A DNA stretch of 64,000 bases, taken from the sequence record NC_025447.1. One strand, written 5' to 3'. The notes below the pieces were generated by a model, which did not search any database, was not told the DNA's origin, and saw only the letters and a list, made by a program, of their open reading frames with translations. Below are positions 4,630-50,984 of the stretch, one piece after another; the stretch's first letter is position 1; every line of letters begins with the position of its first letter. This stretch comes from Escherichia phage 121Q. The position numbers were made by a program, and so were the translations under genes.

Positions 4630-4713
4630 TTGGACAAGAACAGATATTGTGATATAATGTTTGTTATCGGCAGATATTAAAATGCAAACCATTCCTCAAT
4701 GATGAGGGTTTTT
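4630..4713 (+). promoter_or_regulatory. sigma70-like promoter (TTGGACA / TGTGATATAAT) followed by leader stem-loop CCTCAatgaTGAGG + T-run
   Basis: -35/-10-like hexamers with extended TG; hairpin at 4694-4707 then GTTTTT; upstream of ORF 4742. Confidence 0.4.
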
Positions 4714-6480: not shown

Positions 6481-7050
6481 ATGAACTTTATTAAATTCAA
6501 CACATCTGAGTTAGAAGCATACTTTAATACAAATAATAAATTCAATATTATTCTTAAAGACGGAACAACTGTTATCGGAGTATCATTGCTTTCATTTGAT
6601 GGCGAAAAACTCAAAACTGTTTATAAATTCACCAATCTTGATGGTGATTACTGGGATACATCAGATGTATCTAAAATTTGTACACATTATGTATTTGAAT
6701 CAATTGAAGTTGGTGATGGATGGGCATTGACCTGTAATGGTAATAAAGTATTTTCTGGTAACATATTTGGGGTAATTTCAAGTAAAGAAATCGTAGACCA
6801 TCATCTTCATGTTCTCAATAATAACGCCAACACTTATACACCTGATAATATCAAAATTCACGATATTGTAACATATACTGATTATAATGGTTTCAGTCAT
6901 AAAGCAATCGTAACTGAAGTTAAAAAACCAAAAAATTATTTCGACCACGGTTTAATTGAAGTATATATGGTAGGTGGCGACACACAATACTTTGAACATT
7001 TCACTTATACTGGTTGGGATAGATTTCTAACCGTTATTGAGGAATACTAA
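6481..7050 (+). CDS. hypothetical protein
   Basis: ORF track; GGAGAA RBS-like upstream. Confidence 0.5.
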   Translation: MNFIKFNTSELEAYFNTNNKFNIILKDGTTVIGVSLLSFDGEKLKTVYKFTNLDGDYWDTSDVSKICTHYVFESIEVGDGWALTCNGNKVFSGNIFGVISSKEIVDHHLHVLNNNANTYTPDNIKIHDIVTYTDYNGFSHKAIVTEVKKPKNYFDHGLIEVYMVGGDTQYFEHFTYTGWDRFLTVIEEY

Positions 7051-7051
7051 C

Positions 7052-7540
7052 ATGCCTATTCGTGGTGTACCAGAGCCATTAAATGAAGTATTAAAATATG
7101 TTAATATTGAACTGCGAGATGTAAATCTTCGAAGAAATAATATATATTACTTTAAATCAACTGAAATGTGTTCAGTGCAAGTAATTATAGGTACATCTGT
7201 TAAGATAACTCGTGTACTTGATGGTAGTACAGATTTCGTCGAATACAACGTACTTACTAACAAAGTAACACACACATATAAATGGAGTGGGTATAAAACT
7301 ATTAAGTATGAGTTTGATGTTGCTAGAACTGAAGAAGAACGATTTATGTTAAGTACTATCAATCCAGCAAACTACCCTGAACTTGATACATTTTTGCTAA
7401 TTTTAAAACTGTATAATGAAGCAAATGGGAAAGCTAAGGAGTATGATAGAATTATGTATGAACGCAAAAAAGAACGTGCTCAGAAAAGTTATGATCTTTA
7501 TGATAACCCATATGTAAAATATAATAAGGGGAGAAAATGA
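7052..7540 (+). CDS. hypothetical protein
   Basis: ATG at 7052 directly after upstream stop (track starts at alternative codon 7037). Confidence 0.45.
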   Translation: MPIRGVPEPLNEVLKYVNIELRDVNLRRNNIYYFKSTEMCSVQVIIGTSVKITRVLDGSTDFVEYNVLTNKVTHTYKWSGYKTIKYEFDVARTEEERFMLSTINPANYPELDTFLLILKLYNEANGKAKEYDRIMYERKKERAQKSYDLYDNPYVKYNKGRK

Positions 7541-7941
7541 ATAACGAAGTTGAAATTATCATAACTCCACCTATACAAAGTCTTGATGTATCTATTAGTG
7601 ATTTTTTAGAAAAATATTATGAATGGTTTAATAATGATAATATCATTTATAATCATACATTACCAGATGGTTTCGTGGAGCTTATAGAATTAAATTCAAA
7701 ATCACTATACTTCTGTGTTGAATACAATGATTATATGACAGATGAAGCTTATCGTTTTCGTTGTACATTGTATCCGAATTATTTTTCAATAGGTTATAAA
7801 GACTACCAGTACTGCACCACTAACTACAGTGTAGAGGAAGAATTTCAGTACAATTTACTTTATCCAGATTTAGATTATACTATTGCAGTACTGTTATCTA
7901 AAATTATGGATTTTTATAAAGGTAAATACAGTGCAGCCTAA
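7537..7941 (+). CDS. hypothetical protein, EExFFQxST-motif family
   Basis: ORF track; product contains VEEEFQYNLL. Confidence 0.45.
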   Translation: MNNEVEIIITPPIQSLDVSISDFLEKYYEWFNNDNIIYNHTLPDGFVELIELNSKSLYFCVEYNDYMTDEAYRFRCTLYPNYFSIGYKDYQYCTTNYSVEEEFQYNLLYPDLDYTIAVLLSKIMDFYKGKYSAA

Positions 7942-8659: not shown

Positions 8660-8995
<336 letters not shown>

Positions 8996-8996
8996 A

Positions 8997-9179
8997 ATGA
9001 CACACGAAGAATGGATGTACAAACAGCATAAAGAACATGACTGCTTTGGGAATGGTATTCGTCAGGTACATTATGATATTCTCAAAGATATAAATTTATT
9101 CATAAAATATGTTTTGGATGAAAATAAACATTGGTTTATATATGAGATTGCATATAGAAACTCAAATAAACAAAAATAA
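8997..9179 (+). CDS. small protein, MTHEEW family
   Basis: Product MTHEEWMYKQ...; track ORF 8979-9179 trimmed to the family ATG. Confidence 0.4.
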   Translation: MTHEEWMYKQHKEHDCFGNGIRQVHYDILKDINLFIKYVLDENKHWFIYEIAYRNSNKQK

Positions 9180-9193
9180 ATAAGGAATATATT

Positions 9194-9412
9194 ATGGAAA
9201 CAACGTTATTTGAAGTTATTCAAGCATTAAAAACTGGTGATGACATTCAAGTATTGCTACATGGTTATCGTTTAAAAGGCACTGTGGTTTTAGTTAATGA
9301 CACAACGTTAGTTATTGCCGAAACAAATCCATATGATAGTAATCAAGTTGCTAATATCCATATTGATATTAAAAGCATTATTGGTGTAGGCGTAAATAAA
9401 AATCAAGAATAA
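9194..9412 (+). CDS. hypothetical protein
   Basis: ORF track; AAGGAA RBS-like upstream. Confidence 0.4.
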   Translation: METTLFEVIQALKTGDDIQVLLHGYRLKGTVVLVNDTTLVIAETNPYDSNQVANIHIDIKSIIGVGVNKNQE

Positions 9413-9490
9413 CAAATGTTTTTGAAAAAAACCAGAAAATGAATGATTTTTTTGGACAACTCAAAAATATATGATATAATAATTAGTACA

Positions 9491-9580
<90 letters not shown>

Positions 9581-9584
9581 ATAT

Positions 9585-9680
<96 letters not shown>

Positions 9681-9689
9681 CTAAAAACC

Positions 9690-9854
9690 ATGACGCATGA
9701 AGAATGGATGAATGATATTAATTTTAGATATTCGGGTATCGGTAGTTGGCGAAAATATCATTGGGAAATTATTTCAGACCCAGCAGAATACGATAAACTT
9801 ATAAACCATGAAGTATATCCGTGGTTCTTTATTGAAATAATGGTACGAATATGA
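9690..9854 (+). CDS. small protein, MTHEEW family
   Basis: 54-codon ORF MTHEEWMNDINFRYSGIGSW...; stop overlaps next ATG (ATGA). Confidence 0.45.
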   Translation: MTHEEWMNDINFRYSGIGSWRKYHWEIISDPAEYDKLINHEVYPWFFIEIMVRI

Positions 9855-10011
9855 CGCATGAAGAATGGATGAATGACATTAATTTTAGATATTCGGGTAT
9901 CGGTAAATGGCTAAAGTATCATTGGGAATTCATTTCAGAGCCACATATGTATGATAAACTTATCAACGATCCAGCATATGAAATGTACTTAATTGAACTA
10001 CTGGTACGAAT

Positions 10012-10015
<4 letters not shown>
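9851..10015 (+). CDS. small protein, MTHEEW family
   Basis: 54-codon ORF MTHEEWMNDINFRYSGIGKW...; ATGA overlaps at both ends. Confidence 0.45.
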
Positions 10016-10595
<580 letters not shown>

Positions 10596-10599
<4 letters not shown>

Positions 10600-10627
10600 C
10601 TAAATAATTCAGTACTGAGGATATTAA
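10596..10627 (+). promoter_or_regulatory. sigma70-like promoter variant (TTGACT ... TATTAAT)
   Basis: Same TTGACTAAATAxTTCAGTACTG core as neighbouring promoters. Confidence 0.4.
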
Positions 10628-10656
10628 TATGTTTAAAGATGAACGTCCAGATTTGT

Positions 10657-10694
<38 letters not shown>

Positions 10695-10699
10695 GAATT

Positions 10700-11040
10700 C
10701 CACAATCAGACGTATATGGTGTAAGCTACGTCGATGCAATCCAGAACAAGATCTCTGGTACTCTAGGAAGTGGTGAATGTTAACCTAGACGGGTTTGATA
10801 ATTGGACGATAGGCAATTATTACTTGACTAGCAGGTTGAAACTAGAGGTGACAGTCCTTCACCAAACTGGAAAACCGGATGGACTTTTATTTAAAAGGGT
10901 AAGGCGTGGAAATATGTTTACAGAAGTTGCTTTTAGTAGCCTGTACGCCCCACGACAAGGTAGCCGAAAGGTAAGTTAAAACGGGTGGTTATAAAGCTGA
11001 ATTAACAGCGGCGTTTAAAAGCGTCACCATCCATTTTTTT
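10700..11040 (+). ncRNA. candidate structured non-coding RNA (unclassified)
   Basis: About 340 nt with no ORF, GC-richer than flanks, just downstream of a consensus promoter; GNRA-type hairpins (e.g. CCGAAAGG); ends in a T-run. Confidence 0.25.
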
Positions 11041-11056
11041 AATTAAAGTTGGCGAT

Positions 11057-11809
<753 letters not shown>

Positions 11810-11826
11810 TTCACATGATATAGGGA

Positions 11827-12088
<262 letters not shown>

Positions 12089-12096
12089 GAATCTTC

Positions 12097-12498
12097 ATGA
12101 AAAAGAATGACTTGATCAAAATGCTCCAAGAGATTGACGGCAATCCAGAGATTGTTATTTGGAATGGCTATGTCGATGATTATATGAACATCGAAAAAGG
12201 CTTGACTAAAATCACACTAGTCAAAGAAACTGAACAGTTCCTTCTGAACGCATTAGAGCATGAATGGTGCGAACGTAACAAGACATTCGACATTCCAGAA
12301 GACCAACGAACTAAGATTGCAGAACGTGCTAAAGAACTTCATAAGAAGCGTGAATACGATTTCCAGAACCCATATGTTACTGAAGAAGAATTCAATCGCT
12401 GGTACGGAAAAAGAAAGTTGACAAAGTATGTTCTTTCACCTAAACTACGTGGTAAGACTTCTCTTGGTGTATTCAATGCATCTGACTTAGATTACTAA
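12097..12498 (+). CDS. hypothetical protein (paralog of 13138-13353)
   Basis: ORF track; N-terminus MKKNDLIKMLQEIDGNPEIVIW resembles MKAKDLISILQKNPEADILIH. Confidence 0.45.
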   Translation: MKKNDLIKMLQEIDGNPEIVIWNGYVDDYMNIEKGLTKITLVKETEQFLLNALEHEWCERNKTFDIPEDQRTKIAERAKELHKKREYDFQNPYVTEEEFNRWYGKRKLTKYVLSPKLRGKTSLGVFNASDLDY

Positions 12499-12508
12499 GG
12501 AAAACAAA

Positions 12509-12829
12509 ATGATGTGGTATTCAAATGTACCGTGTGAACCTAAATATATTCAGATTTCACATAATGCACTGAAAGCGTTCTGTGATAATTGCAGTACTAA
12601 AGATTATCACTTCGAAGACTTCAGAACGTTGATTTATGACCATCACTGTCAGCCAGCAACCAAAGATGGTATGTTTGTAATTGAACAATTCTTTCATGGT
12701 AAGGTATTGCAAATTGTTGCTGATTATCTGAAAGCAATGGGATATATTATCAAAGATGATTATCTTGATTTAGAAGGTGAATGCATTGTTGATGGTTATG
12801 ATGGTGTACTGATGAATTGGACATGGTGA
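12509..12829 (+). CDS. hypothetical protein
   Basis: ORF track. Confidence 0.45.
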   Translation: MMWYSNVPCEPKYIQISHNALKAFCDNCSTKDYHFEDFRTLIYDHHCQPATKDGMFVIEQFFHGKVLQIVADYLKAMGYIIKDDYLDLEGECIVDGYDGVLMNWTW

Positions 12830-12833
12830 TGAA

Positions 12834-13136
12834 ATGATTGCAACAATGATGATTGTACTTATCCCAATAGTACTAGTAATTCTAGTGACTTCATATGGTG
12901 CAACCACAACTATTGAAGATCTAAAAACACATTACGCTATCGTCTTTAGTGAAGCACATGAAGACTTTGGTACAGTACTGACCGATAAGACTTATATTGC
13001 AACTAAATGTAAGTACTACCGATTCTGGGAACGTTCTGACAAATACCACTACAGAGATGAGAAAGGCGTGAATCAGTACTTAGACGTACTGGATGCATTC
13101 TTGAAACCTTACTATACAGTAACCGAGGTAAAATAA
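12834..13136 (+). CDS. hypothetical protein with N-terminal transmembrane segment
   Basis: ORF track; hydrophobic N-terminus. Confidence 0.4.
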   Translation: MIATMMIVLIPIVLVILVTSYGATTTIEDLKTHYAIVFSEAHEDFGTVLTDKTYIATKCKYYRFWERSDKYHYRDEKGVNQYLDVLDAFLKPYYTVTEVK

Positions 13137-13137
13137 C

Positions 13138-13353
13138 GTGAAAGCTAAAGATTTGATTTCAATTTTACAGAAAAACCCAGAAGCAGATATTCTTATTCAT
13201 GCTTCGCCTTATGATGACTATGCGATTGGTAGTTGCGAAACTGCTCATTCATATCAAGCAGGGGACACCGCTGTTGAAGAGTCTGGTGAAGATTTTTCGG
13301 AATCATTTGATGAAGATGGAAAACTCTTAGTACCAGTCATCATTCTCTCATAA
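13138..13353 (+). CDS. hypothetical protein (paralog of 12097-12498)
   Basis: ORF track; likely GTG start. Confidence 0.4.
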   Translation: MKAKDLISILQKNPEADILIHASPYDDYAIGSCETAHSYQAGDTAVEESGEDFSESFDEDGKLLVPVIILS

Positions 13354-13360
13354 AAGAACG

Positions 13361-13393
<33 letters not shown>

Positions 13394-13442
13394 CAGGGGA
13401 GGTTGTAATTCCCGATTCAGTAGCTTTTTAAGCTGTTCCGTG

Positions 13443-13543
<101 letters not shown>

Positions 13544-13562
13544 AGAGGTACTTCGAGTATGC

Positions 13563-13629
<67 letters not shown>

Positions 13630-13704
13630 TAATTGACATAACTTTGAATGGAGTGTATTATGTTCCAAGAAGAAAACTGGGGTTTTTAACATAACGGGGA
13701 ATGT

Positions 13705-13750
<46 letters not shown>

Positions 13751-13755
13751 GTGCT

Positions 13756-13794
<39 letters not shown>

Positions 13795-13795
13795 A

Positions 13796-13837
<42 letters not shown>

Positions 13838-13838
13838 G

Positions 13839-13889
<51 letters not shown>

Positions 13890-13895
13890 TAATTA

Positions 13896-13968
13896 GCCGA
13901 CTTAGCTCAGTAGGTAGAGCGTTCCTCTTGTAAGGGAAATGTCACCAGTTCAATTCCGGTAGTCGGCA
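13896..13968 (+). tRNA. tRNA-Thr (anticodon TGT) candidate
   Basis: Acceptor GCCGACT/AGTCGGC, D-arm GCTC-AGTAGGTAG-AGCG, anticodon loop CTTGTAA, T-loop TTCAATT; one T-stem mismatch. Confidence 0.65.
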
Positions 13969-13980
13969 CAAAATAAAGGT

Positions 13981-19315: not shown

Positions 19316-20470
19316 TTATGCGTTGTAACCAACTATTACGACTGAGCAGTCAAGCGGTTCTACTACTTTTAAAATCACATTATCATCTTCATCCACTTGT
19401 ATTTCGCTATGAACTACATGATTGTCTGAAGAATATAATTGAACTTGTGGTAGTGCTTTACCATGTTCAGTTACTGGAACTGAGATAGAGTACATAGAGT
19501 CTTCACCGAGAACCCACTCACTTAAAGTATATTCTTTATGGAAAGGAGTAGTATGCAGTGTTTTTCCGATTATACTCAAAGAAACAGGTAAATTATCAGT
19601 TTGATACACAGTAATATTACCTTCTGCGTCTACAGAAAGATCTACACCAACTTGATATAAGTCACCACTGTATGCTTGAAGTGCTAAGTACTGTCCACGA
19701 TCATGAACATCAAATGGAACAACCGCAGAAAATACACCTTCCGAAACAGGTTCAAATTGGGATAGAAGAACTGATGTAACAAAATCAATATCCTCACCAC
19801 TTTCAAGAACATCAAATTCCACCACTTTAGTGTTATAATATGGAGAAGTGAGCGTAGCAGTACCTTTCCCTGATTGTGTGATAACATCAACTGGAATTGT
19901 AAATGCATCATTAACAAATTGGGTAGTAAAGTATTCTGTCCCGTCTGGTAATACGATTGTTATTACCATACCGTTAGTATCAATTTCTGAACCAGTGTTG
20001 AATAATTTACCACTAATTGAGTCATTACCAACAAATACTGGTGAAATGAGAATATTATCTATATCACGATCTATAATACCACATTCAGGTGTATACATAT
20101 GATACAAGGTTTGTGAACTACCTAAAATTGTTTTATGTAGCATGAATTTATATACAAATCCAGTATCAGTTTCTTGTGGCTCTTCGGAATATCCACGAAC
20201 AAAGAAACAATTTTTATTAATTTCACTTAATAGTTGGTCATTAGTTTTATTGTAATTTAATAGATAACCTTTATTATCTTTAGTTGTTATTTGTACTTTA
20301 CGATATATTATATTAGTTCTGGGATCAACTAAATCATATAATCTATGGCTTCTTTGGCGATAGATTCTAATATTTTTTAGTCTAGTTCCATCGTTGAGGA
20401 TTGCACCATCAACAACATAACCACATTCACCAAACTTATAGCGTCCAGCCGCAGCAATTGACCTTGACAT
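19316..20470 (-). CDS. hypothetical protein (384 aa), lone minus-strand gene
   Basis: Long ORF; GGAGGG RBS 5 nt upstream of ATG; AATAAATA late-promoter-like motif upstream on minus strand. Confidence 0.55.
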   Translation of the reverse strand: MSRSIAAAGRYKFGECGYVVDGAILNDGTRLKNIRIYRQRSHRLYDLVDPRTNIIYRKVQITTKDNKGYLLNYNKTNDQLLSEINKNCFFVRGYSEEPQETDTGFVYKFMLHKTILGSSQTLYHMYTPECGIIDRDIDNILISPVFVGNDSISGKLFNTGSEIDTNGMVITIVLPDGTEYFTTQFVNDAFTIPVDVITQSGKGTATLTSPYYNTKVVEFDVLESGEDIDFVTSVLLSQFEPVSEGVFSAVVPFDVHDRGQYLALQAYSGDLYQVGVDLSVDAEGNITVYQTDNLPVSLSIIGKTLHTTPFHKEYTLSEWVLGEDSMYSISVPVTEHGKALPQVQLYSSDNHVVHSEIQVDEDDNVILKVVEPLDCSVVIVGYNA

Positions 20471-23253: not shown

Positions 23254-23675
23254 GAGGCTATAATAAGATTTGTATTTTTGTATTTTTAGTTTGTGCATTC
23301 AATTCGTTTGGTTACTACTGTACAGAAAATAATATTTCATATGGTTTAAATCCTTTGTGGTTTACAATTTCCAATGTAGCACAAATTGGTATTGCTCTTA
23401 TGTCTGCACTTATGTTCTGTCCAATTGTCACTATGGATACTGATCATGAAAGGCTTGGATTTCTCCGTGATACTGGAGACGAACCTTACAGTAGATTGAT
23501 TGTGTTGTATCCATTTATTGTTATTTTAGGTACTAACATCCAACTTGGGTCATTATCTAATAGTGTTACATCAGCAGCTATTGCTATATTTGCATTCACA
23601 TTTTTTATGGTACACAAATCAGTACTTAATTGGTATATCACAAAAATGGCAGAAGAAGGTACTAAAAATACTTGA
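23250..23675 (+). CDS. hypothetical polytopic membrane protein
   Basis: ORF track; ATGA overlap. Confidence 0.45.
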   Translation: MRGYNKICIFVFLVCAFNSFGYYCTENNISYGLNPLWFTISNVAQIGIALMSALMFCPIVTMDTDHERLGFLRDTGDEPYSRLIVLYPFIVILGTNIQLGSLSNSVTSAAIAIFAFTFFMVHKSVLNWYITKMAEEGTKNT

Positions 23676-23734
23676 CATAATTTAGTATGTTATATATAAT
23701 TATTTTGTTAAAAACAAATTAGAGTAAGGAACTT

Positions 23735-23986
23735 ATGAACATCGATAAGGTCAAAGAACTTAGTGCTGCACTAATTAAGAATGAAGAAGTTTGTGAAGAA
23801 CTTCGCAGTACTATCAAAGTTGAGTACGCACGACTCCAAGGTATGCTTCAAGAATCAGAATGGGTAGTAACTAAATCTATCGAAGCAATCTATAAGGATA
23901 TCGAATCCCTTTTCAACAAGAAAAGTAAGATTGAATCTGATTCATATAACAAACGTAAAGAGTTATCTACTGCACTTGGTATCTAA
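23735..23986 (+). CDS. hypothetical protein
   Basis: ORF track; TTGACA promoter-like at 23672. Confidence 0.45.
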   Translation: MNIDKVKELSAALIKNEEVCEELRSTIKVEYARLQGMLQESEWVVTKSIEAIYKDIESLFNKKSKIESDSYNKRKELSTALGI

Positions 23987-24060
23987 AAGTATTTGACATA
24001 ACAAATAATATGGAGTACAATGTGCTCCTAATTTAATTATCAGCTAAAAAGGAAAACATT

Positions 24061-24321
24061 ATGAAATCTATTCTCGTTGCAGTTAACCTGGTTGCTTCCC
24101 CATCTTTCAACTTCAAACAAGTTGTTGCTGATAATCTGAAGAAGATCTGTCCAAACGCTGAATTGACTTTCTGTGTATTTGATTCAGAAAAAGTAACTAA
24201 AGTTGATCTAAACTATCTTTTGAACGAAGTACAAAGCGTTTCTGGTGAAAGTAACTTAAAAGTTCTTCATGAGATTGCAGAAGATTATGATGACACTCTA
24301 GTAATTTCGGAGAAATTCTAA
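24061..24321 (+). CDS. hypothetical protein
   Basis: ORF track. Confidence 0.45.
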   Translation: MKSILVAVNLVASPSFNFKQVVADNLKKICPNAELTFCVFDSEKVTKVDLNYLLNEVQSVSGESNLKVLHEIAEDYDDTLVISEKF

Positions 24322-24326
24322 ATCAA

Positions 24327-24746
24327 ATGATTACATTCATTCAGTACTTAATCATTAAATTTTTTGGCTATTATACGATTGAGGGCAAAGCTACGCTTGC
24401 ACATAAAATCTTTGTAGCATTATGTACGGGTGATTATGACGTATTGAATAAGTACTGTAAATCTAAAGAATGTATTGATATAATGGCACTTCGTATCTAT
24501 GAGTGCCGATCCAATAGATACAATTTTTACCAGTACAGATTTGATAAAGAAGAATTTGATAGCATCAAAATGCTAAAGAATTTATGTAACAATAAAAAGA
24601 ATATGCATATATCAGAATTTGTTGCTTTGTATTTTTATTTAAAAAGTTCATTGTATATGAACACGATGCAAAGATTCGATACTAGAATTAATGTATTCAC
24701 CGATAAAGAATTTTATATATACGATAAATTCTTAGATAAGGTTTAA
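24327..24746 (+). CDS. hypothetical protein
   Basis: ORF track. Confidence 0.4.
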   Translation: MITFIQYLIIKFFGYYTIEGKATLAHKIFVALCTGDYDVLNKYCKSKECIDIMALRIYECRSNRYNFYQYRFDKEEFDSIKMLKNLCNNKKNMHISEFVALYFYLKSSLYMNTMQRFDTRINVFTDKEFYIYDKFLDKV

Positions 24747-24747
24747 T

Positions 24748-25245
24748 ATGACAACTGTTTATATTGATAAACGATTAAATTTATTGATTACCGATTCTAG
24801 AGTTACGTCAACTATACCACGAAACTTATTTGGTTTTTTCCCACTAAGACCAAAATATCAATATGGAGTTGTTAATCAAAAAACTTTATATGTACATGAC
24901 CGTTTATTCAGTGCTAGTGGGTCAGTAAGTGAAATTGATAAAGTACTGGATTGGTTAATTAATAAAGTACCAGTTATACCTGACAGAAAGTTAAGTTGCC
25001 ATTGTGTGCTTCTTTCTAAAGATTATGTTATTCATATGATTTTAACTAAAGGAAAGTTTATTAAAAAACTTGAATATCTACATGAAGACTACACTTTCTT
25101 TATGGGAAGTGGTGGAGAATACATGGTAGATGCTGCTATTCATGAAGAACATACAACTTTATATGATAAAGTGTTTAGTACTTTCATGGATGTGCATAAC
25201 CATGATTGCTTCACAGATGATAATATTAATGTATATCGATTTTGA
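24748..25245 (+). CDS. hypothetical protein
   Basis: ORF track. Confidence 0.45.
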   Translation: MTTVYIDKRLNLLITDSRVTSTIPRNLFGFFPLRPKYQYGVVNQKTLYVHDRLFSASGSVSEIDKVLDWLINKVPVIPDRKLSCHCVLLSKDYVIHMILTKGKFIKKLEYLHEDYTFFMGSGGEYMVDAAIHEEHTTLYDKVFSTFMDVHNHDCFTDDNINVYRF

Positions 25246-25266
25246 TTTCGTCATTAGGAGATGTAA

Positions 25267-26232
25267 GTGAAAAAGCTTGATTTAAATACAATTGCCGAAG
25301 AAGTTCTGGATGAATGTTTTTCTAATGAAGAAGTCAACACACTAGAAGCCTTAGATTTCGTTGAAGATAAAGATGAAAATGAAGGTAAAGTACAAAGCAG
25401 TTTCAAATATAATATTACACTTAAGCGACCACCAAATGTTTCCAATGAAGATCTAATTCGTGATATTCAAGCTGGTATCAATGTAAAGAAAAACACTGAA
25501 CTGTTAGTTCGTTACAATTATGGACTTATTATTGATGTAGCAAGTAAATGTACTTGTTATATCCCATTTGAAGATAAGATTTCATATGGTGTTGAGGGGT
25601 TCATGAGAGCACTAAAAACCTTTGATCTTAATAAGAATGTGAAGTTCATTACCTATGCTTCTTCTAGTATTTACATGACAGTTTATAACGAAAGTTCTGA
25701 CGCTAACTATATGGTACACTTCCCACGTTATATGAGTGTTCATAAGATCAAAGTAAAAAGATTCTGTCAGGAATATATGCGTAAACATGGTGTTCGCCCA
25801 ACTCCTGAAATAATCTCAGAGGGTACTGGGATTGAGATTCAGCATGTTAATAACTGTTTGTTATTTCAAAGCGAATACACTTCTCTGGATGCACCATTAG
25901 ACGGTGTTACCGATGGTACACTAGGTGACATTATTCATTCACCTGCTTCTGATTTTAACCTCAATGTTGATAGTATTCGTGCACCTTTACGTTATGCTAT
26001 CAATGAACTGACTAACGAATTGAGTACTAAAGAACGTGAGATTATCCAGCGTGTTCATGGTCTAGGTGAATATGAACCTGAAACGCTTCGTGAGATTGCT
26101 GATAATGGTTTTGTTGATGATAATGGAAAATATGTTAAATCCCGTTCATCAATACATCGAAAGTACAGTGAAGCTATGCAAAAGCTTAAGAAGCTAGTAC
26201 TTGCAAAAGGGTACGAATACGAAGATTTCTAA
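25267..26232 (+). CDS. sigma-70 family RNA polymerase sigma factor-like protein
   Basis: GTG start after AGGAG; region-2-like LVRYNYGLIIDVASK...GVEGFMRALKTFD...KFITYASSSIY and region-4-like C-terminus; motif match by eye only. Confidence 0.55.
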   Translation: MKKLDLNTIAEEVLDECFSNEEVNTLEALDFVEDKDENEGKVQSSFKYNITLKRPPNVSNEDLIRDIQAGINVKKNTELLVRYNYGLIIDVASKCTCYIPFEDKISYGVEGFMRALKTFDLNKNVKFITYASSSIYMTVYNESSDANYMVHFPRYMSVHKIKVKRFCQEYMRKHGVRPTPEIISEGTGIEIQHVNNCLLFQSEYTSLDAPLDGVTDGTLGDIIHSPASDFNLNVDSIRAPLRYAINELTNELSTKEREIIQRVHGLGEYEPETLREIADNGFVDDNGKYVKSRSSIHRKYSEAMQKLKKLVLAKGYEYEDF

Positions 26233-26238
26233 AGAAAA

Positions 26239-26266
26239 AAGGTTGGCTTATGCCAACCTTTTTTTA
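26239..26266 (+). terminator. rho-independent terminator
   Basis: AAGGTTGGC-TTAT-GCCAACCTT followed by TTTTTT. Confidence 0.6.
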
Positions 26267-26289
26267 TGGGATGAAGTAAAAGTTTGTGA

Positions 26290-26880
26290 TATAATTATCT
26301 TGTACAATTCTGTTGGCATGATATTCATGTACCTGATCCACTCGAAAACGTAGAGGGCAGTTGAGCAGTCCGACAGTGCGAACAGCAAAAGAAACCCGTT
26401 AGATGTGGGCATAGTTTGAACCCCTCACGGCAATGCGGCTGTATAAAGAACCACGTTAGGATAGCTGGTGGTTCCTTGATAGACATATAAGGATAACACC
26501 TTACGAATTATCTAAGGGAGAGTTATCAAATTTTGTACAGGAAAGTTGCGTCCAGAATTTGAGTACTCACATTAAGTATTTGATTGCATAGATACTTAAT
26601 GAAGATACACTATGTTTAAAAGTGTAGACCGTCATATGAAACTGAAGTAGAGAGAAACAGGATGACCCGCTTTCGCACTCGTTATGAGTAATCTTCAATG
26701 CAATAGCTCTGATACCATCAGCGTCAAATTTCCCTCCTTGTGGGGGGAAGAAAAATCCCTTCCTCAAATCCCGTCAATATTAAAAGTCCTTGACAGTTAT
26801 TAATCATTCGCGTAGAATACGTAGTATTAGAAGCGAACAGACATCTCGAAGAGATGGATGATTAACCATTAAGGAATATC
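26290..26880 (+). ncRNA. candidate large structured non-coding RNA (unclassified)
   Basis: About 590 nt without a plausible ORF in a densely coding genome; GC-richer than flanks; TGTGATATAAT promoter-like at 26285-26296. Confidence 0.25.
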
Positions 26881-27319: not shown

Positions 27320-28108
27320 ATGAGCACTATCGATGAACTGATTCAACGGAATTCAAAATATTACCAACCATCAGAAATTGTGGATAACATTACTAAATCT
27401 GAGTTTGGACCGAACACACGCAAACTCATTCATGTAATGTCACGTGATGGCTTTAAATGTGATTGTTGTGGTGAATCAAATGTAGTATTCACTTTACACA
27501 AGCACAGTACTAAAGAACGTTATAAATTCAGACCTTATGTACTTAAAGGGAAACGCCTTGTACGCATGACGTTAGACCATAATGTACTGGACTGTCTTCA
27601 GGGCGGTAATGATAAAGAGAACATGACTGCATTGTGTGAAGATTGTAACGCATTACGCCAGCATAAGTTTGCTGAGTACAGTGAGTTTAAACACTGGTAT
27701 CATAACGCGGATCGTTCAATCGAGCCTGACGTTAACTACTGCTTCATTGAGTACATTAAGAATGCCAAAGATACATACATTCTTAAATCAATGTCACCTA
27801 TTACCGTGTTTCCTGAGAACCTATTCACTACATTAAAGAATAGTTTTATTGTCGGTGATATTGATGCATTCAAGTATTTTGACAAAGGTGCAAAACATTT
27901 TGAAATTCAATGTCTTAGTACTGCACTATGTAAACTCATTAAAATTTACATAAAAGAGTATTTGGGTATTGACAATGTACGTGTACCAGAGTATACTTTT
28001 TCTATTGAATTCGATTGTGAATCAATTAAAGAGTTTGGAATTCTTTTCAATAAACAAATAGAACTTGCAATTCAAAACGAAATCAAGTACTATACTACTA
28101 ACATTTAA
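27320..28108 (+). CDS. HNH endonuclease (putative homing endonuclease)
   Basis: CDCCG ... TLDHNVLDCLQGGNDKENMTALCEDCNALRQHK matches the HNH catalytic motif. Confidence 0.7.
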   Translation: MSTIDELIQRNSKYYQPSEIVDNITKSEFGPNTRKLIHVMSRDGFKCDCCGESNVVFTLHKHSTKERYKFRPYVLKGKRLVRMTLDHNVLDCLQGGNDKENMTALCEDCNALRQHKFAEYSEFKHWYHNADRSIEPDVNYCFIEYIKNAKDTYILKSMSPITVFPENLFTTLKNSFIVGDIDAFKYFDKGAKHFEIQCLSTALCKLIKIYIKEYLGIDNVRVPEYTFSIEFDCESIKEFGILFNKQIELAIQNEIKYYTTNI

Positions 28109-34509: not shown

Positions 34510-34701
34510 ATGTTGATTTATCAAGGTGATAATATTCGTGTTATGCAGCATCCCTACTTACAAATCTTTGATGTGCAGCAGTATATGGAAGGTGATGACC
34601 CAAGAACCTATGGTCGTAAGTATGATTACTTCACTGTAAAGCAGTGTAAAAATATTAACGAAGTACGACAATTAGTTCAAGAACTTCAAAACAAAGGTTG
34701 A
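34510..34701 (+). CDS. hypothetical protein
   Basis: ATG at 34510; track ORF 34456-34701. Confidence 0.35.
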   Translation: MLIYQGDNIRVMQHPYLQIFDVQQYMEGDDPRTYGRKYDYFTVKQCKNINEVRQLVQELQNKG

Positions 34702-34727
34702 CTTCGGTCAGCCTTTTTTGTTATAAT
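34695..34727 (+). promoter_or_regulatory. stem-loop terminator overlapping promoter (PeSL-like cassette)
   Basis: AAGGTTGAC-TTCG-GTCAGCCTT + T-run; TTGACT inside the stem and TATAAT 18 nt downstream. Confidence 0.55.
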
Positions 34728-37430: not shown

Positions 37431-37545
37431 TTTAACTTTGGGACAACCATTCTTATTATGATATAATGTTTTATGTCATTCGATATAAATGACAACGGAA
37501 CTATAAATATTATAGTAAAATTTATCTCTTATAGGAGTTATAAAA

Positions 37546-38174: not shown

Positions 38175-39686
38175 ATGAAATCTATGGAGAGAAATCAAAT
38201 GCCAAGTAATTTTACTGATAAAAATGGTGGTAACATGGCTGGTCACTCTGATAAATGGAGTGAACGCAACCGCCGTCCAAATAGTTATCAAGCAGGTCAA
38301 GGTTCACGTGGGTCACGTAACCAAGGAACTGGTCTAGCTGGTAAAGCAAACGCAGAAGCAGGTGAAGTTAAGAGTACTGAGAACATGACTGAGCTAGAAA
38401 AGCTACGTTATGTTAACTCATTAGGTCTTCTTAACGCAACACAAAAACAACGCCTTGCTGATATGGAACGTGCTGAGAAAGAACAAGCAGTTCCTAAAGA
38501 AGAACCAAAAGCAGAAGTACCTAAAGCTGCTAACCCTGTTAAAGAGTTATCAGATAACTTAGGTAAGATCTTTGCTAACAAACCACAGTTGATTCAGGGT
38601 ATTGTCAAAGCACTACAGGCAGTTCCTAAAGAAGAACTCAAAGGTAAAGCACAAGCTGTACTTGATGTAATGAAAGGTAATAAGAGCACTGAACCAACTG
38701 AAGTATTCAGTACTATCATGCGTGCACTTGAAGGTACACACAAAGAAGATTCCAAAGAACCTGAACAGGGTGAAGCAAGTCTTGATGGTATTCTTAAAAC
38801 TTTTGATAATATTGGTAAAGCAGACCGTGCTAATGCCCAGCAAGTCAAGAATGTACTGGCTAAACTTGAAAACCGTTTAGAAGGTAAAGACGATAAGGTT
38901 AAGCTCGTATCAGATGCAGTTAACAGTGCACTTAAATCTTATGTACAAGGTGAGAAAAGTCGCTTCGTAACAGCTATGGATGCTGCATTCAACACTATGA
39001 AAAAGTATGAAGCAGAACATGGTGAGAAGGTAACACCAGATGGTTATCTAAAGCGTGCAGATGAAGAGGGTGCAGTTGAACAGAAAGATGTTGAGCCTGA
39101 GCAAGAAGAAATACCTGATACCGTTGATATGGATGGATACATTCATCGTCCTGAGATGGAAGAGTTTGGGTCAGATAAAGAAGGTTTTGAACATGCAATG
39201 GCAGTATATAAAGCATTAGTTAAAAATCCAGATTATGCTAACCGTTTTGTTGACGAGTTTGATAGTGCATGGAATAACTACAAAGAGAAAGGTTATGACT
39301 TCCCTGCTGAAGCTGCATTCTTTGAACTTGGTAAACTATTAGCTAAACATGGAATTGACGTTGGTTCATCTGATTCCGAAGGTATGGAAGAAGAACATCT
39401 TGAAATGACCGATAAATCAATTCATGAACTTCAAAAGCTAATGATGTGGATATCCGAGATTGGCAAAAAAGCAGGTGCTGATCGTAAAAGTATCAACAAA
39501 AACATTAGTTGGATTAAAGATAATGTTGGTAACAATGCTCGTAAACTTCAAAAGGCGTGGGCTGATTTAGTAAATGGTGCAGATGATGTTGACATTGAAT
39601 CACCAGAAGCATATGAGTATGCACTAACTACACTTGATAACTCATTCAAAGAGTACGACAGTGGTGTTGGAAAGGATAAAAAATAA
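38175..39686 (+). CDS. hypothetical acidic protein (503 aa) with internal repeats
   Basis: Long ORF flanked by terminator cassettes; repeated NSLGLL and AVPKEE/VPKEELK segments. Confidence 0.55.
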   Translation: MKSMERNQMPSNFTDKNGGNMAGHSDKWSERNRRPNSYQAGQGSRGSRNQGTGLAGKANAEAGEVKSTENMTELEKLRYVNSLGLLNATQKQRLADMERAEKEQAVPKEEPKAEVPKAANPVKELSDNLGKIFANKPQLIQGIVKALQAVPKEELKGKAQAVLDVMKGNKSTEPTEVFSTIMRALEGTHKEDSKEPEQGEASLDGILKTFDNIGKADRANAQQVKNVLAKLENRLEGKDDKVKLVSDAVNSALKSYVQGEKSRFVTAMDAAFNTMKKYEAEHGEKVTPDGYLKRADEEGAVEQKDVEPEQEEIPDTVDMDGYIHRPEMEEFGSDKEGFEHAMAVYKALVKNPDYANRFVDEFDSAWNNYKEKGYDFPAEAAFFELGKLLAKHGIDVGSSDSEGMEEEHLEMTDKSIHELQKLMMWISEIGKKAGADRKSINKNISWIKDNVGNNARKLQKAWADLVNGADDVDIESPEAYEYALTTLDNSFKEYDSGVGKDKK

Positions 39687-41828: not shown

Positions 41829-42167
41829 ATGGAACAATATTTTGAATTAATAAACAAAGTATCATTTTATGTAGTATCTTTGGTTTGGGTGTATTATATG
41901 TTTTGCTATATTATTGCATTCTTCCGATATACTACTTTATATGAACGTATCTACTATGATGCCCCAATTTCATTCTTGATGTTTTGTGCCTGTACGTGGG
42001 GAATATTAGAAGTACTGATATGTGGGTATAGTACTGATGAATTAAATCTGGTATCGGTGTTGACTGGGTTTTCATTTGTTGTTATGATAGCTGCCGTTCC
42101 AGTATGGTTGTTCTTTGGACTAGTTCATCGCATTGATATATGGCGTTCTAATATCCCTGAAAAGTAA
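41829..42167 (+). CDS. small polytopic membrane protein, paralog family (C-terminal RxNIPEK-type motif)
   Basis: Hydrophobic segments; ends HRIDIWRSNIPEK. Confidence 0.45.
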   Translation: MEQYFELINKVSFYVVSLVWVYYMFCYIIAFFRYTTLYERIYYDAPISFLMFCACTWGILEVLICGYSTDELNLVSVLTGFSFVVMIAAVPVWLFFGLVHRIDIWRSNIPEK

Positions 42168-42176
42168 GGATTGGTA

Positions 42177-42518
42177 ATGATTTATTACACTAACATGTTT
42201 GCCTATGCTGTTGCTTGCATTTACATTGTTTACTTCTTATTCGGTGGAGTACTGTGCTTCTTTAAGTACAAAACGTTGTTCAACCGAATGTACCCAAATC
42301 ATCCAATTGTAGTTGTACTTTTGATTCTTTCAGTTTCTCAAATAATCGTTGAAACTACAATGGGTATCAGTAGTGTACATTATAGTTTTGGTACTATAGT
42401 AATTATTACTATGCTTATTGCATACATTTTAGTACTTGGATATGGTATCTTTGGTAATATTGGTATGAAAATGTATCATCGAATTAAAACATTACGTGAT
42501 AATCTACCGGAGCGTTGA
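42177..42518 (+). CDS. small polytopic membrane protein, paralog family
   Basis: ATG at 42177; ends HRIKTLRDNLPER. Confidence 0.45.
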   Translation: MIYYTNMFAYAVACIYIVYFLFGGVLCFFKYKTLFNRMYPNHPIVVVLLILSVSQIIVETTMGISSVHYSFGTIVIITMLIAYILVLGYGIFGNIGMKMYHRIKTLRDNLPER

Positions 42519-42519
42519 T

Positions 42520-42864
42520 ATGTATAATTTGAACCTAATCTCATATATTATAACAACACTGTTTACATTCTATGCCTTTGTTGGTATAATCCTACTGTAC
42601 TTTAAATTTTATAAAGTGTTTAACCGTTTCTATCCTTCAATGGAGAATGAGTTTTTCTTTGTGTTGTACGTAGGTTACACATTAATGGCTACATGTTTCA
42701 CTGTAGCCGATGGTGTCATCGGCATTAAAACTGATTCCCCAAATGGTAGTACGCTGGTTGCATTTATTCTTACTGGATTCCTTGCAACTTATATTGCCTT
42801 CATTACAACATGGTCAGTGGTTGAATTTCTCTTGCGACTACGAAAGAATATGCCGAATCGATAG
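42520..42864 (+). CDS. small polytopic membrane protein, paralog family
   Basis: ATG at 42520; ends LLRLRKNMPNR. Confidence 0.45.
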   Translation: MYNLNLISYIITTLFTFYAFVGIILLYFKFYKVFNRFYPSMENEFFFVLYVGYTLMATCFTVADGVIGIKTDSPNGSTLVAFILTGFLATYIAFITTWSVVEFLLRLRKNMPNR

Positions 42865-45269: not shown

Positions 45270-45273
45270 AGAA

Positions 45274-45309
45274 AAGGGTTGACTTCGGTCAGCCCTTTTT
45301 GCTATAATT
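45274..45309 (+). promoter_or_regulatory. stem-loop terminator overlapping promoter (PeSL-like cassette, canonical copy)
   Basis: AAGGGTTGAC-TTCG-GTCAGCCCTT + TTTT; TTGACT in stem, TATAAT 18 nt downstream; near-identical to copies at 46561 and 48723. Confidence 0.6.
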
Positions 45310-46551: not shown

Positions 46552-46560
46552 CATAAAGGG

Positions 46561-46596
46561 TTGACTTCGGTCAGCCCTTTTTGCTATAATTATTTC
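46561..46596 (+). promoter_or_regulatory. stem-loop terminator overlapping promoter (PeSL-like cassette, canonical copy)
   Basis: AAGGGTTGACTTCGGTCAGCCCTTTTTGCTATAATTATTTCATCAA. Confidence 0.6.
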
Positions 46597-48710: not shown

Positions 48711-48722
48711 ATATGTTTATAA

Positions 48723-48757
48723 AAAGGGTTGACTTCGGTCAGCCCTTTTTGCTATAA
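48723..48757 (+). promoter_or_regulatory. stem-loop terminator overlapping promoter (PeSL-like cassette, canonical copy)
   Basis: AAAAAGGGTTGACTTCGGTCAGCCCTTTTTGCTATAATTATTTCATCAA. Confidence 0.6.
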
Positions 48758-48786
48758 TTATTTCATCAACTGATGAGGATAACGAA

Positions 48787-49622: not shown

Positions 49623-49964
49623 ATGCGTGAGTTTTTTGAATCTAATATAATGCTTGGTATCACACTGATATACATGTTTGTATTCTTGTTTTATCATTCA
49701 ATTGTAATTAGTCTTTGGTATTTTAAAAGGAAAGTTGTTTTTAAATTGTATTCATATAATAATGTATTCTTGGTTGTATATAGCATTATACAAGGTGGAT
49801 TTATTTTATTTGGTGTGATGACATATGTGATTTACATGTTACAAATTGATAACACACCACACATTACACAATATGTTGTGTTTTCAGGACTAATCGTCTG
49901 GTTATTGGTGTGTACTATGTACTTTATTATTAAAGCTCGTGATAACTTTAAATGGGGATTCTAA
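49623..49964 (+). CDS. small polytopic membrane protein, tandem paralog 1
   Basis: ORF track; related to next copy (…FFESNIMLGITLIYMFVF… vs …FFKSDTMISITLIYLFGF…). Confidence 0.45.
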   Translation: MREFFESNIMLGITLIYMFVFLFYHSIVISLWYFKRKVVFKLYSYNNVFLVVYSIIQGGFILFGVMTYVIYMLQIDNTPHITQYVVFSGLIVWLLVCTMYFIIKARDNFKWGF

Positions 49965-50302
49965 TGTTAGAATTTTTTAAATCAGATACAATGATTAGTA
50001 TTACTTTGATTTATCTTTTTGGTTTTTTCTTTTATCATGCACTAGTTGTAGTACTATGGTATTTTAAAAAGAAAATTGTTTTTAAACTGTATCCAGTGAG
50101 GAATTCATCACTAGTTCTTTACACACTTGTTCAAGGTTTGTTTGCAATTGTTGGTCTTATGGCACACTTAATTTATTGTGCTAATCCTCACTTGAACTCA
50201 ATCTCACAATATATTGTATTCTTTGGATTGTTCATTTGGTTAGTTGCATACTTAATCCATCTCATTATTCATGGTAGAGATAAAATTCGCGGAGACTTCT
50301 AA
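49955..50302 (+). CDS. small polytopic membrane protein, tandem paralog 2
   Basis: ATG at 49955; ends HGRDKIRGDF. Confidence 0.45.
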   Translation, partial: GILMLEFFKSDTMISITLIYLFGFFFYHALVVVLWYFKKKIVFKLYPVRNSSLVLYTLVQGLFAIVGLMAHLIYCANPHLNSISQYIVFFGLFIWLVAYLIHLIIHGRDKIRGDF

Positions 50303-50649
50303 TGTTTGAAGCTTATCTTGAGTTTTTAAGGAGTAGTCCAGTTGCACATTCACTTGCAGGGATTATTCTAACAACTTATGTATCATTTTGGGTAGTTATG
50401 TTTCTAGGATGGTATTTTAAACGACAATTCTATAAACGTAATGGTGAAGATTTTATGAATTCTGTCATTAATCAATCGTTGTTTGCATCAACATTGATTG
50501 CATGTATTGTAGCAACACTCACAGGAAAGGTACTACCAGCTTTTTCCGCAGTTTACGGCACACTTGGGATGATATGTTTAACTTTTATATTGACCATTAA
50601 AATTTGTTGTGTTATGATTGAACTTCGAAATAAGATACCGGAGGAATGA
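50302..50649 (+). CDS. small polytopic membrane protein, tandem paralog 3
   Basis: ORF track; ends ELRNKIPEE. Confidence 0.45.
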   Translation: MFEAYLEFLRSSPVAHSLAGIILTTYVSFWVVMFLGWYFKRQFYKRNGEDFMNSVINQSLFASTLIACIVATLTGKVLPAFSAVYGTLGMICLTFILTIKICCVMIELRNKIPEE

Positions 50650-50984
50650 TGGAGTACTTTATTGATTTACTGCCGTGGTATATGAAAGTTAGTACCATGT
50701 ACTATATTATTAGTGCTGGATTCTACTTTCTGATGTGGTTCTTTAAACGACCAATTTCAGTATTCATCGCTGATAACATGCTGCAATTAAAATTACACGC
50801 ATGGTTTGGTATGGCGATGATTATGCCTATTATTCACTACTCAATGATTAGTAGAGGTTTCCGTTCTAATGGTGAACCAATTGTATTAGTATTCTATTGG
50901 GGTTCAACTATTGCATATGTAAGTTTGTTGTTGTTCCCAGTCGTTCATAAGTTACGTGCTAAAGTTCCTGATGCGAGGTACTAA
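50646..50984 (+). CDS. small polytopic membrane protein, tandem paralog 4
   Basis: ORF track; ATGA overlaps. Confidence 0.45.
   Translation: MMEYFIDLLPWYMKVSTMYYIISAGFYFLMWFFKRPISVFIADNMLQLKLHAWFGMAMIMPIIHYSMISRGFRSNGEPIVLVFYWGSTIAYVSLLLFPVVHKLRAKVPDARY

Follow-up and report, generated by a model that had tools for sequence, protein, structure and literature searches.

A three-domain sigma-70-family protein of Escherichia phage 121Q and a putative middle promoter class in Rak2-like jumbo phages

Escherichia phage 121Q belongs to the genus Asteriusvirus, a group of Rak2-like jumbo coliphages with genomes of 350-370 kb. We have analyzed a stretch of 64,000 nucleotides (nt) of its DNA (record NC_025447.1; hereafter the window), and in particular a gene in it whose 321-amino acid (aa) product is a member of the sigma-70 family (Table 1). 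As a proxy for the whole genome we used OR845138.1, a near-identical unannotated record of 351,992 bp, in which open reading frames (ORFs) were called and upstream regions were analyzed. The sigma gene begins with GTG behind a Shine-Dalgarno sequence, its N-terminal start MKKLDLN being common to all homologues of the protein, and it closes a string of co-oriented genes headed by a sigma-70 consensus promoter, which is also found in the proxy genome at 330,633. The four small ORFs that precede it in the string correspond to gp070c-gp067c of phage phAPEC6, which are annotated as hypothetical proteins, and are probably co-transcribed with it. The string is located among short ORFs, in a part of the genome with many consensus promoters, as has been reported for phage CBB, and it is followed by an intrinsic terminator. 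Furthermore, the sigma protein is not among the 62 proteins of the phAPEC6 virion proteome. Because of the consensus promoter, the terminator and its absence from the virion, the sigma gene looks like an early gene that would be read by the unmodified host polymerase.

Table 1. Positions of the sigma gene, its domains and associated features in the 64,000-nt window.
Feature	Position	Strand	Basis or remark
Sigma-70-family gene	25267..26232	+	GTG start, 321 aa; ORF call, profiles, PDB, fold
Shine-Dalgarno AGGAG	25256..25260	+	6 nt ahead of the GTG start of the sigma gene
Sigma-70 consensus promoter TTGACA-17 nt-TATAAT, 12/12	23672..23700	+	Head of the co-oriented gene string ending in the sigma gene
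Second near-consensus promoter	23993-24021	+	Within the sigma gene string
Four small co-oriented ORFs	23735-23986, 24061-24321, 24327-24746, 24748-25245	+	Upstream of the sigma gene
N-terminal acidic region, residues 1-58	25267..25440	+	KKLDLNxIxxEVLDECF conserved, then variable acidic linker; predicted disordered
Sigma2 domain, residues ~59-147	25441..25707	+	Profiles, PDB alignment, model
Sigma3 domain, residues ~154-226	25726..25944	+	Pfam, model
Sigma4 domain, residues ~234-313	25966..26205	+	Pfam, alignment, model
Clade-specific ~10-aa insertion DNGFVDDNGKYVK, residues ~279-291	26101..26139	+	Turn of the region 4.2 helix-turn-helix
Intrinsic terminator AGGTTGGC-TTAT-GCCAACCT and T run	26240..26266	+	Read from the sequence; missed by a simple scan
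Class-M promoter TGGGATG-N13-TGATATAAT	26267..26295	+	Directly after the sigma terminator
Structured RNA candidate, ORF-free, ~480 nt	26303..26780	+	Behind the class-M promoter 26267-26295
Class-M promoter TGGGACA-N13-TGATATAAT, 7/7 box	37439..37467	+	Scored scan
Weaker class-M box matches	4630-4658 and 9452-9480	+	Scored scan
MLPF array, RCC1-like repeat paralogues	53089..63797	-	Nine MLPF starts

The gene is already known: dozens of GenBank records annotate it, and it appears in the literature on phages RaK2, GAP32, CBB and phAPEC6 as well as in a comparative survey of jumbo phages. Its orthologues are phAPEC6 gp066c, RaK2 ORF244, GAP32_490 and CBB_513, and it is named 'RNA polymerase sigma factor' in PBECO4, G17 and slurp01; across records the label varies among 'RNA polymerase sigma factor', 'RpoD', 'RpoD subfamily' and 'RpoS'. 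According to the literature, phages of the Rak2-like clade have no RNA polymerase of their own and carry an RpoD-like sigma together with a late sigma similar to gp55 of phage T4; in the CBB paper, CBB_513 was described with regions 2, 3 and 4 in a presumed early region, and a separate gp55-like late sigma was listed. PA5oct, a relative of the clade, is rifampicin-sensitive. A preliminary description of the window had considered a full sigma encoded by a phage in a T4-type context to be unexpected, which is at odds with the annotation and publication of such a protein throughout the clade. As for the context, it is T4-like with respect to replication, recombination and late-transcription genes, since gp32-, UvsX-, gp46/47-, topoisomerase II- and gp55-like genes as well as DenV are present, but the phage is an Asteriusvirus and not a member of the Tevenvirinae.

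Multiple lines of evidence place the 321-aa protein in the sigma-70 family. Among the Pfam profiles, Sigma70_r3 matches residues 162-226 above its cut-off (E=2e-9, 37.8 bits vs 25.3), while Sigma70_r2 (residues 80-140, E=7e-5, 22.9 bits vs 24) and Sigma70_r4 (residues 251-279, E=3e-5, 23.9 bits vs 24.1) fall just below theirs, the r4 alignment covering only positions 4-28 of the 50 in the profile, i.e. its first half. The order of the three along the protein (r2, r3, r4) is the canonical one. PHROG 351, 'RNA polymerase sigma factor', matches across residues 1-317 with E=2.3e-60, and the NCBIfam superfamily model TIGR02937 passes its cut-off (44.7 bits vs 42.9). When the protein was compared with the PDB using phmmer, 58 sigma chains were matched, the best being RpoD (5e-17), of which residues 373-456 align to the sigma2 domain. 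The AlphaFold2 model has a mean predicted local distance difference test score (pLDDT) of 70.5, with residues 50-220 and 240-315 mostly at 75-90; its helices lie at 60-147 and 234-313, and the N-terminal 49 residues and the 3.2 linker are disordered. In a Foldseek search of the PDB, nearly all of the 50 best matches listed were RNA polymerase sigma chains (sigmaS, sigmaA, RpoD) with a probability of 1.00. The protein has no similarity to T4 gp55 (PHROG 234/12791) in a phmmer comparison at E<=10. Thus, the profile matches and the predicted fold bear out the preliminary description, which had taken the protein for a full sigma-70-family member rather than a gp55-type late sigma: it is a three-domain member of the family, with sigma2, sigma3 and sigma4 all matched, and it is very probably a functional sigma that binds core polymerase.

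It is not, on the other hand, an orthologue of RpoD or RpoS, as it fails every RpoD/RpoS-defining feature tested. Its scores against the equivalog models RpoD_Cterm (6e-25, 88 bits vs a cut-off of 354) and rpoS_proteo (1.6e-19, 70.5 bits vs 378.7) are 4-5 fold under the cut-offs. No match to region 1.2 (PF00140) was found at E<=1, only the second half of the region being loosely alignable; regions 1.1 and 1.2 and the non-conserved domain are absent, and the acidic N-terminus stands in their place. The database labels 'RpoD' and 'RpoS' are therefore misleading. Since sigma3 scores above the Pfam cut-off, the protein is not an extracytoplasmic function (ECF, group 4) sigma, which has no sigma3, either.

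To compare individual residues, we aligned the window sigma and 15 members of its family with E. coli sigma-70 and sigma-S (residue numbers below are those of sigma-70). D403, G408, G411, M413, F419, F427, Y430, R584 and the fold-defining glycines are kept and E420 is replaced by D, and the residues that form the pocket for -11A (F419, D/E420, F427 and Y430) are retained across genera. Other positions have changed. W433 and W434 are both S in the window protein and are S, T or A in all 16 members; Q437 and R436 are M and Y, respectively, in Asteriusvirus and RaK2, while RQ is kept in GAP32, XbC2, Munch and P0012; T440 in sigma2 is Y, and H455 and E458 in sigma3 are Y and V. In region 4.2, a clade-wide insertion precedes the recognition helix. 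This helix is still alignable (SRSSIHRKY vs TRERIRQIE in sigma-70), and it carries the changes E585S, R586S, R588H and Q589R, so that only R584 is kept of R584-E585-R586...R588-Q589. Because of the insertion and the altered recognition helix, alignments to solved sigmas end at residues 279-283 and the Pfam r4 match is partial.

The protein has an orthologue in every Rak2-like genus, with identities of 44% in RaK2/K64-1, 37% in Munch/SE_PL, 35% in GAP32/CBB/BF/Yen9-04 and 31% in XbC2. The 4 kb around the gene are 99.5% identical to those in vB_EcoM_G17, Sharanji and phAPEC6 and 97-99% identical to those in slurp01, PBECO4, UB and others. In a collection of 5.8 billion proteins only 12 close clusters were found, all from phage-type or unnamed contigs, and the next matches were generic cellular sigmas with E-values of 1e-11 or worse. 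These data bear on the idea that the gene is a captured host sigma gene in decay and no longer functional. The r2 and r4 scores just below the Pfam gathering thresholds would agree with decay, but the ORF is intact and equipped with a Shine-Dalgarno sequence, a promoter and a terminator, the protein is 99-100% identical among Asteriusvirus records and is found with clade-specific motifs in every genus, and it has no close cellular relative; we consider decay to be hardly credible.

Three classes of promoters were distinguished in the proxy genome. Class E, formed by a TTGACA-like hexamer, a 16/17-nt spacer and (TG)TATAAT, is concentrated in regions of short ORFs, including the window and the sigma operon. 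Class M has the bipartite form TGRRACR-N13-TGnTATAAT, in which the box reads TGGGACA or TGAGACA in Asteriusvirus. Applying strict criteria, we found 25 sites of this class, all on the transcribed strand, compared with 0-2 in each of 20 shuffled genomes. The spacing is sharply defined: among 77 TGnTATAAT sites, the box stands at exactly 13 nt in 25, at 14 nt in three and at 30 nt in one, and, the three at 14 nt excepted, it was seen in none of the 77 at the other nine offsets tested (9 to 25 nt). A scan with loose thresholds gave 51 sites against a background of ~23 (~2-fold), and we therefore kept to the strict sites. In CBB and GAP32 this geometry has been found independently, and the motif TGAAACG-N13-TGnTATAAT in the CBB supplement (identified by MEME) has the class-M architecture. 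The CBB box TGAAACG itself was tried as the box of the present phage and rejected, as only one of its 50 sites is intergenic; its equivalent here is TGGGACA/TGAGACA. In RaK2, as in the window, a class-M site follows the sigma gene.

The genes behind class-M promoters encode a gp55-like late sigma (PHROG 12791, 3e-154), a gp46/47-like nuclease and other exonucleases, SSB, a UvsX-like recombinase, a primase, a DnaB-like helicase, both topoisomerase II subunits, a pyrophosphohydrolase and a DNA methyltransferase. The gp55-like gene lies at 217,492-218,331 of the proxy genome ('sigma factor for late transcription') and was reached only by using CBB_244 as a bridge; a class-M promoter precedes it both in Asteriusvirus (at 217,406) and in CBB (Porf_244). 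Both a full sigma and a gp55-like one are thus encoded in the genome, and the presence of one does not speak against the other. Class L, with the motif (T)ATAAATA, has 52 sites in the genome, 30 of which are intergenic, co-oriented and no more than 120 nt from a start codon, with the majority lying 35-55 nt upstream. Genes behind class L encode the major head, tail tube, baseplate hub, tail, tail-fibre and virion structural proteins. Besides these classes, the 32-50 kb region of OR845138.1 contains ~14 nearly identical promoters of the form aaaaAGTACTTGCAA-N16-TATAATgttttacatcgagaggggaa, which have a CTTGCA/TTGCAA -35 element and a conserved transcribed leader.

These observations suggest a cascade of three sigmas. 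The unmodified host sigma-70 holoenzyme would first make the phage sigma from the consensus promoter at the head of its operon. The phage sigma would bind the E. coli core RNA polymerase, as is proposed because the phage has no polymerase of its own, and would direct it, through the remodelled region 4.2, to the clade-specific 'middle' class TGRRACR-N13-TGnTATAAT. Class M would in turn serve genes for replication and recombination, the gene of the gp55-like late sigma, tRNAs and a structured RNA present in four copies (see below), and the late sigma thus produced would read the ATAAATA promoters of the structural genes. When T4 gp55, gp33 (residues 12-112), AsiA and MotA were compared with the six-frame ORFs of the window and the proxy genome using phmmer, none of them gave a match at E<=10; as to gp33 in the Rak2-like group, one paper reports an orthologue and the CBB paper reports none. 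In T4 the middle switch is made by AsiA and MotA, and since no homologue of either is detectable, the phage sigma is an obvious candidate for this switch, which it would perform by replacing sigma-70 rather than by remodelling it. We regard the proposition that the phage sigma redirects the host core to class M, in between host sigma-70 and the gp55-like factor, as evenly balanced.

In favor of the cascade, the changes in sigma4 fit the class-M box; the residue-base contacts of region 4.2 in sigma-70 were reportedly worked out in the genetic studies of Gardella 1989 and Siegele 1989. The phage proteins retain R584, the residue that contacts -31C in sigma-70, and there is a near-invariant 'AC' in the box. 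Where Asteriusvirus has H at residue 588 and G at position -33 of the box, GAP32/XbC2 have S and A, respectively. Q589 is replaced by R in 15 of the 16 members, alongside a new conserved TG upstream. In addition, the GAP32/CBB box TGAAACG matches TTGACA at only 2/6 positions and yet is strongly conserved, which argues for a reader other than region 4 of sigma-70.

Several points weigh against this reading of the promoter class, and some of them favor a different one, in which class M is read by host sigma-70, either alone by way of its extended -10 element or together with a MotA-like activator bound to TGRRACR, and the phage protein is a competitor or decoy that aids host shut-off. TGnTATAAT is the extended -10 of sigma-70 and is optimal for it, while in the phage protein the WW melting dyad and the residues that would contact the extended -10 and position -12 are missing (W433/W434 to S/S, Q437M, T440Y, H455Y and E458V). 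Moreover, the -10 motif is constant across genera that differ at residues 436/437 (RQ vs YM), and the Asteriusvirus box retains GACA, i.e. 4/6 of TTGACA; with GACA and TGn retained, host sigma-70 alone could use class M in this genus. GAP32, CBB and XbC2 have a gene for a helix-turn-helix regulator two genes upstream of that for the sigma, so a separate DNA-binding activator could read the box. The acidic N-terminus of the phage protein recalls region 1.1, and the residues Q406, E407 and N409, which bind core in region 2.2, are replaced. The covariation between sigma4 and the box involves two or three lineages only, and our search of the literature turned up no experimental work on the sigma from any phage of this clade. 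Against a decoy, the sigma2-sigma3-sigma4 architecture, the -11A pocket, R584 and the helix-turn-helix geometry are kept down to 31% identity, and the conservation of architecture and pocket favors DNA recognition over mere core binding. The WW dyad is also lacking in many group-3 sigmas, such as FliA and SigF, and neither a MotA nor an AsiA homologue was found. We regard this reading, with the phage protein as a decoy, as unlikely.

A third possibility is that the phage sigma is functional and serves another class of promoters, namely the boxes of the MLPF array (ATTAAATATAGTATAAT), a subclass of the form AGTACTTGCAA-N16-TATAAT or a motif that escaped detection. The residues reading position -12 and the TG are changed, which makes a -10 element other than TGnTATAAT plausible; the MLPF boxes are highly conserved and have no TTGACA-like -35; and the ~14 promoters in the 32-50 kb region of the proxy genome share an unusual -35. 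The last group, however, is found in regions of the early type and has to be active before the first phage protein is made. As for the array, the full box ATTAAATATAGTATAATGAATAA(A)GGAGG, with a hairpin (GCCAGTAC..GTACTGGC) and a T run ahead of it, lies before seven of its nine MLPF starts; at the start at 54241 it is shortened (CTAAATATAAT), and at that at 55431 it is missing; in most of the genes, a terminator hairpin is followed by ATTAAATATAGTATAATGAATAAAGGAGG. Eight members of the array have been detected in phAPEC6 virions by mass spectrometry, and their presence there indicates late expression. Only 16 nt separate the TATAAT of the box from the ATG, and transcription from this TATAAT would therefore start at the Shine-Dalgarno sequence, while TTAAATA, 6-7 nt further upstream, matches ATAAATA at 6/7 positions and, at ~32 nt from the ATG, is placed much as in class L. 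A scan of the proxy genome found the box nowhere outside the array, so that its conservation reflects tandem duplication of the whole cassette; moreover, GAP32 has a single RCC1 gene and has nonetheless kept the sigma, which would have no target there. Consequently, the suggestion in the preliminary description that the sigma might drive the AT-rich boxes in front of the MLPF genes finds little support, and we consider it distinctly unlikely: the boxes, with their late-like TAAATA core, are probably late promoters and the genes late genes. The broader possibility of some other promoter class seems improbable to us as well.

Directly behind the class-M promoter that follows the sigma terminator lies the ORF-free segment listed in Table 1 as a structured RNA candidate. 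Across genera in which the sigma protein is only ~35% identical, this RNA retains ~70% nucleotide identity. Each Asteriusvirus genome has four copies of it, each directly 3' of a class-M promoter; the paralogues in OR845138.1 lie at ~90,003-90,478, 143,390-143,926 and 223,202-223,669. Contigs of other Rak2-like jumbo phages carry up to four copies each, and TGRRACR-N13-TGnTATAAT lies upstream in 18 of 20 loci, i.e. in all those for which a -10 and the DNA upstream were available. When 15 copies are aligned, the alignment has ~140 invariant columns, and RNAalifold predicts from it 82 consensus pairs in 18 helices, 40 of the pairs showing compensatory double changes. Of the cells, 96.9% are paired, compared with 83.0% in shuffled alignments (none of 500 shuffles reaches this value), and double changes occur in 165 cells, compared with 48 in the shuffles and at most 32 in slid controls. 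The folding z-score of the single sequence is unremarkable (-1.5), the structure being supported by the comparative data only. Searches of Rfam 15 with two copies returned no family at gathering or E<=1 thresholds, and no paper describing the family was found in the literature; four ncRNAs were reported for PA5oct. By Rfam 15 and the literature, the ~450-540-nt RNA is a candidate for an undescribed, covariation-supported family, and would be a more novel element than the sigma itself. From its promoters, we predict that it belongs to the class-M regulon.

A complete copy of the RNA was also found in E. coli LR-29-1 (NZ_AP027515.1, at ~3,479,000; 6891-7541 of the excised locus; nhmmer E=5e-120), as well as in NZ_CM130020.1. 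This copy carries the same promoter, TGGGATG-N13-TGATATAAT, and sits in a 1.4-kb ORF-free gap of an island of ~10 kb between ffs and ybaA, which encodes an integrase fragment, IS3, a recombinase, DUF4326, DUF488 and dual-OB proteins. Of 5,426 complete E. coli genomes, only two carry this island, which could be a satellite or a defence element that is wired to the phage promoter class. The most inclusive reading would thus comprise a sigma dedicated, by way of its remodelled region 4.2, to reading a clade-wide bipartite promoter, a three-sigma cascade in place of AsiA/MotA, and a regulon including the multi-copy RNA, which was captured together with its promoter by the E. coli island, maybe a satellite or defence element sensing infection; we offer it tentatively, leaning somewhat against it as a whole.

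Some other features of the window deserve mention. Downstream of the sigma gene, in the segment 27059-28099, lies an ORF of 262 aa (27320-28108, plus strand) to which several records give the name HNH endonuclease. OR845138.1, although collinear in other respects, lacks it, and in GAP32 an HNH gene directly follows the sigma gene; the ORF looks like a mobile homing-endonuclease insertion. Six tRNA genes lie at 8682-13969 on the plus strand (Gly-tcc, Ser-tga, Ser-'act', Met-cat, Asn-gtt and Thr-tgt), of which the one at 11464-11555 was assigned the unusual anticodon ACT by ARAGORN. The class-M-like site at 9452-9480 has the form TTGGACA-N13-TGATATAAT and ends 11 nt ahead of the tRNA-Ser gene at 9491. 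A module consisting of GGGTTGACTTCGGTCAGCCC, a T run and TG(C/T)TATAAT is repeated on the plus strand at ~34690-34727, 45270-45308, 46552-46590 and 48720-48758; it comprises a terminator-like hairpin with a TTGACT -35 element in its stem, followed by an extended -10 at promoter spacing, and appears to combine a terminator with a promoter between gene cassettes. The hexamer AGTACT recurs throughout OR845138.1 in promoter spacers and terminator stems. Two virion-protein ORFs sit inside the early-looking region: 19316-20470, the lone ORF on the minus strand, whose counterpart in phAPEC6, gp077, was identified as a virion protein by mass spectrometry, and 38175-39686 (plus strand, 503 aa), a 'virion structural protein' by PHROG with both an ATAAATA late-type site and a class-M site upstream. 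Pfam searches returned no match for the ORFs 24748-25245, 27320-28105, 19319-20470 and 38175-39683. Finally, two tandem arrays on the plus strand (41829-42864 and 49623-50984) each encode 3-4 small hydrophobic paralogues of ~112-122 aa with similar N-termini.

For the way in which phages of 350 kb with neither an RNA polymerase nor AsiA/MotA time their gene expression, the map of three promoter classes, with the late-sigma gene behind class M and individual sigma4 residues matched to positions of the box, offers a testable wiring. If the proposed cascade is true, a relative of T4 makes its middle-gene switch by sigma replacement and not by sigma appropriation, and the phage sigma and its promoter form an orthogonal pair working with the E. 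coli core polymerase. The orthologues in Rak2-like phages share with the window sigma their place in the early region and their set of domains. RpoD and RpoS of E. coli are its best PDB and fold matches, and can be aligned with it in sigma2-sigma4, from region 2.1 to the first helix of region 4.2, at ~20-25% identity. Like the window sigma, T4 gp55 is a phage-encoded specificity factor for the host core polymerase, but it is a minimal sigma2-like factor reading TATAAATA, whereas the window sigma has three domains. In phages SPO1 and phiEco32, the early products gp28 and gp36, respectively, replace the primary sigma of the host and turn on the next temporal class; gp28 is small and divergent and gp36 is ECF-like, neither being known to have sigma3, in contrast to the three-domain sigma here. 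It is nevertheless the logic of these two that we propose for the phage sigma. AsiA and MotA of T4 resemble the class-M system in that a sigma-70-type -10 is combined with a phage-specific box in place of the -35, in front of replication genes and tRNAs; they differ in that they share no homology with it and remodel region 4 of sigma-70, whereas here a whole sigma would replace sigma-70.

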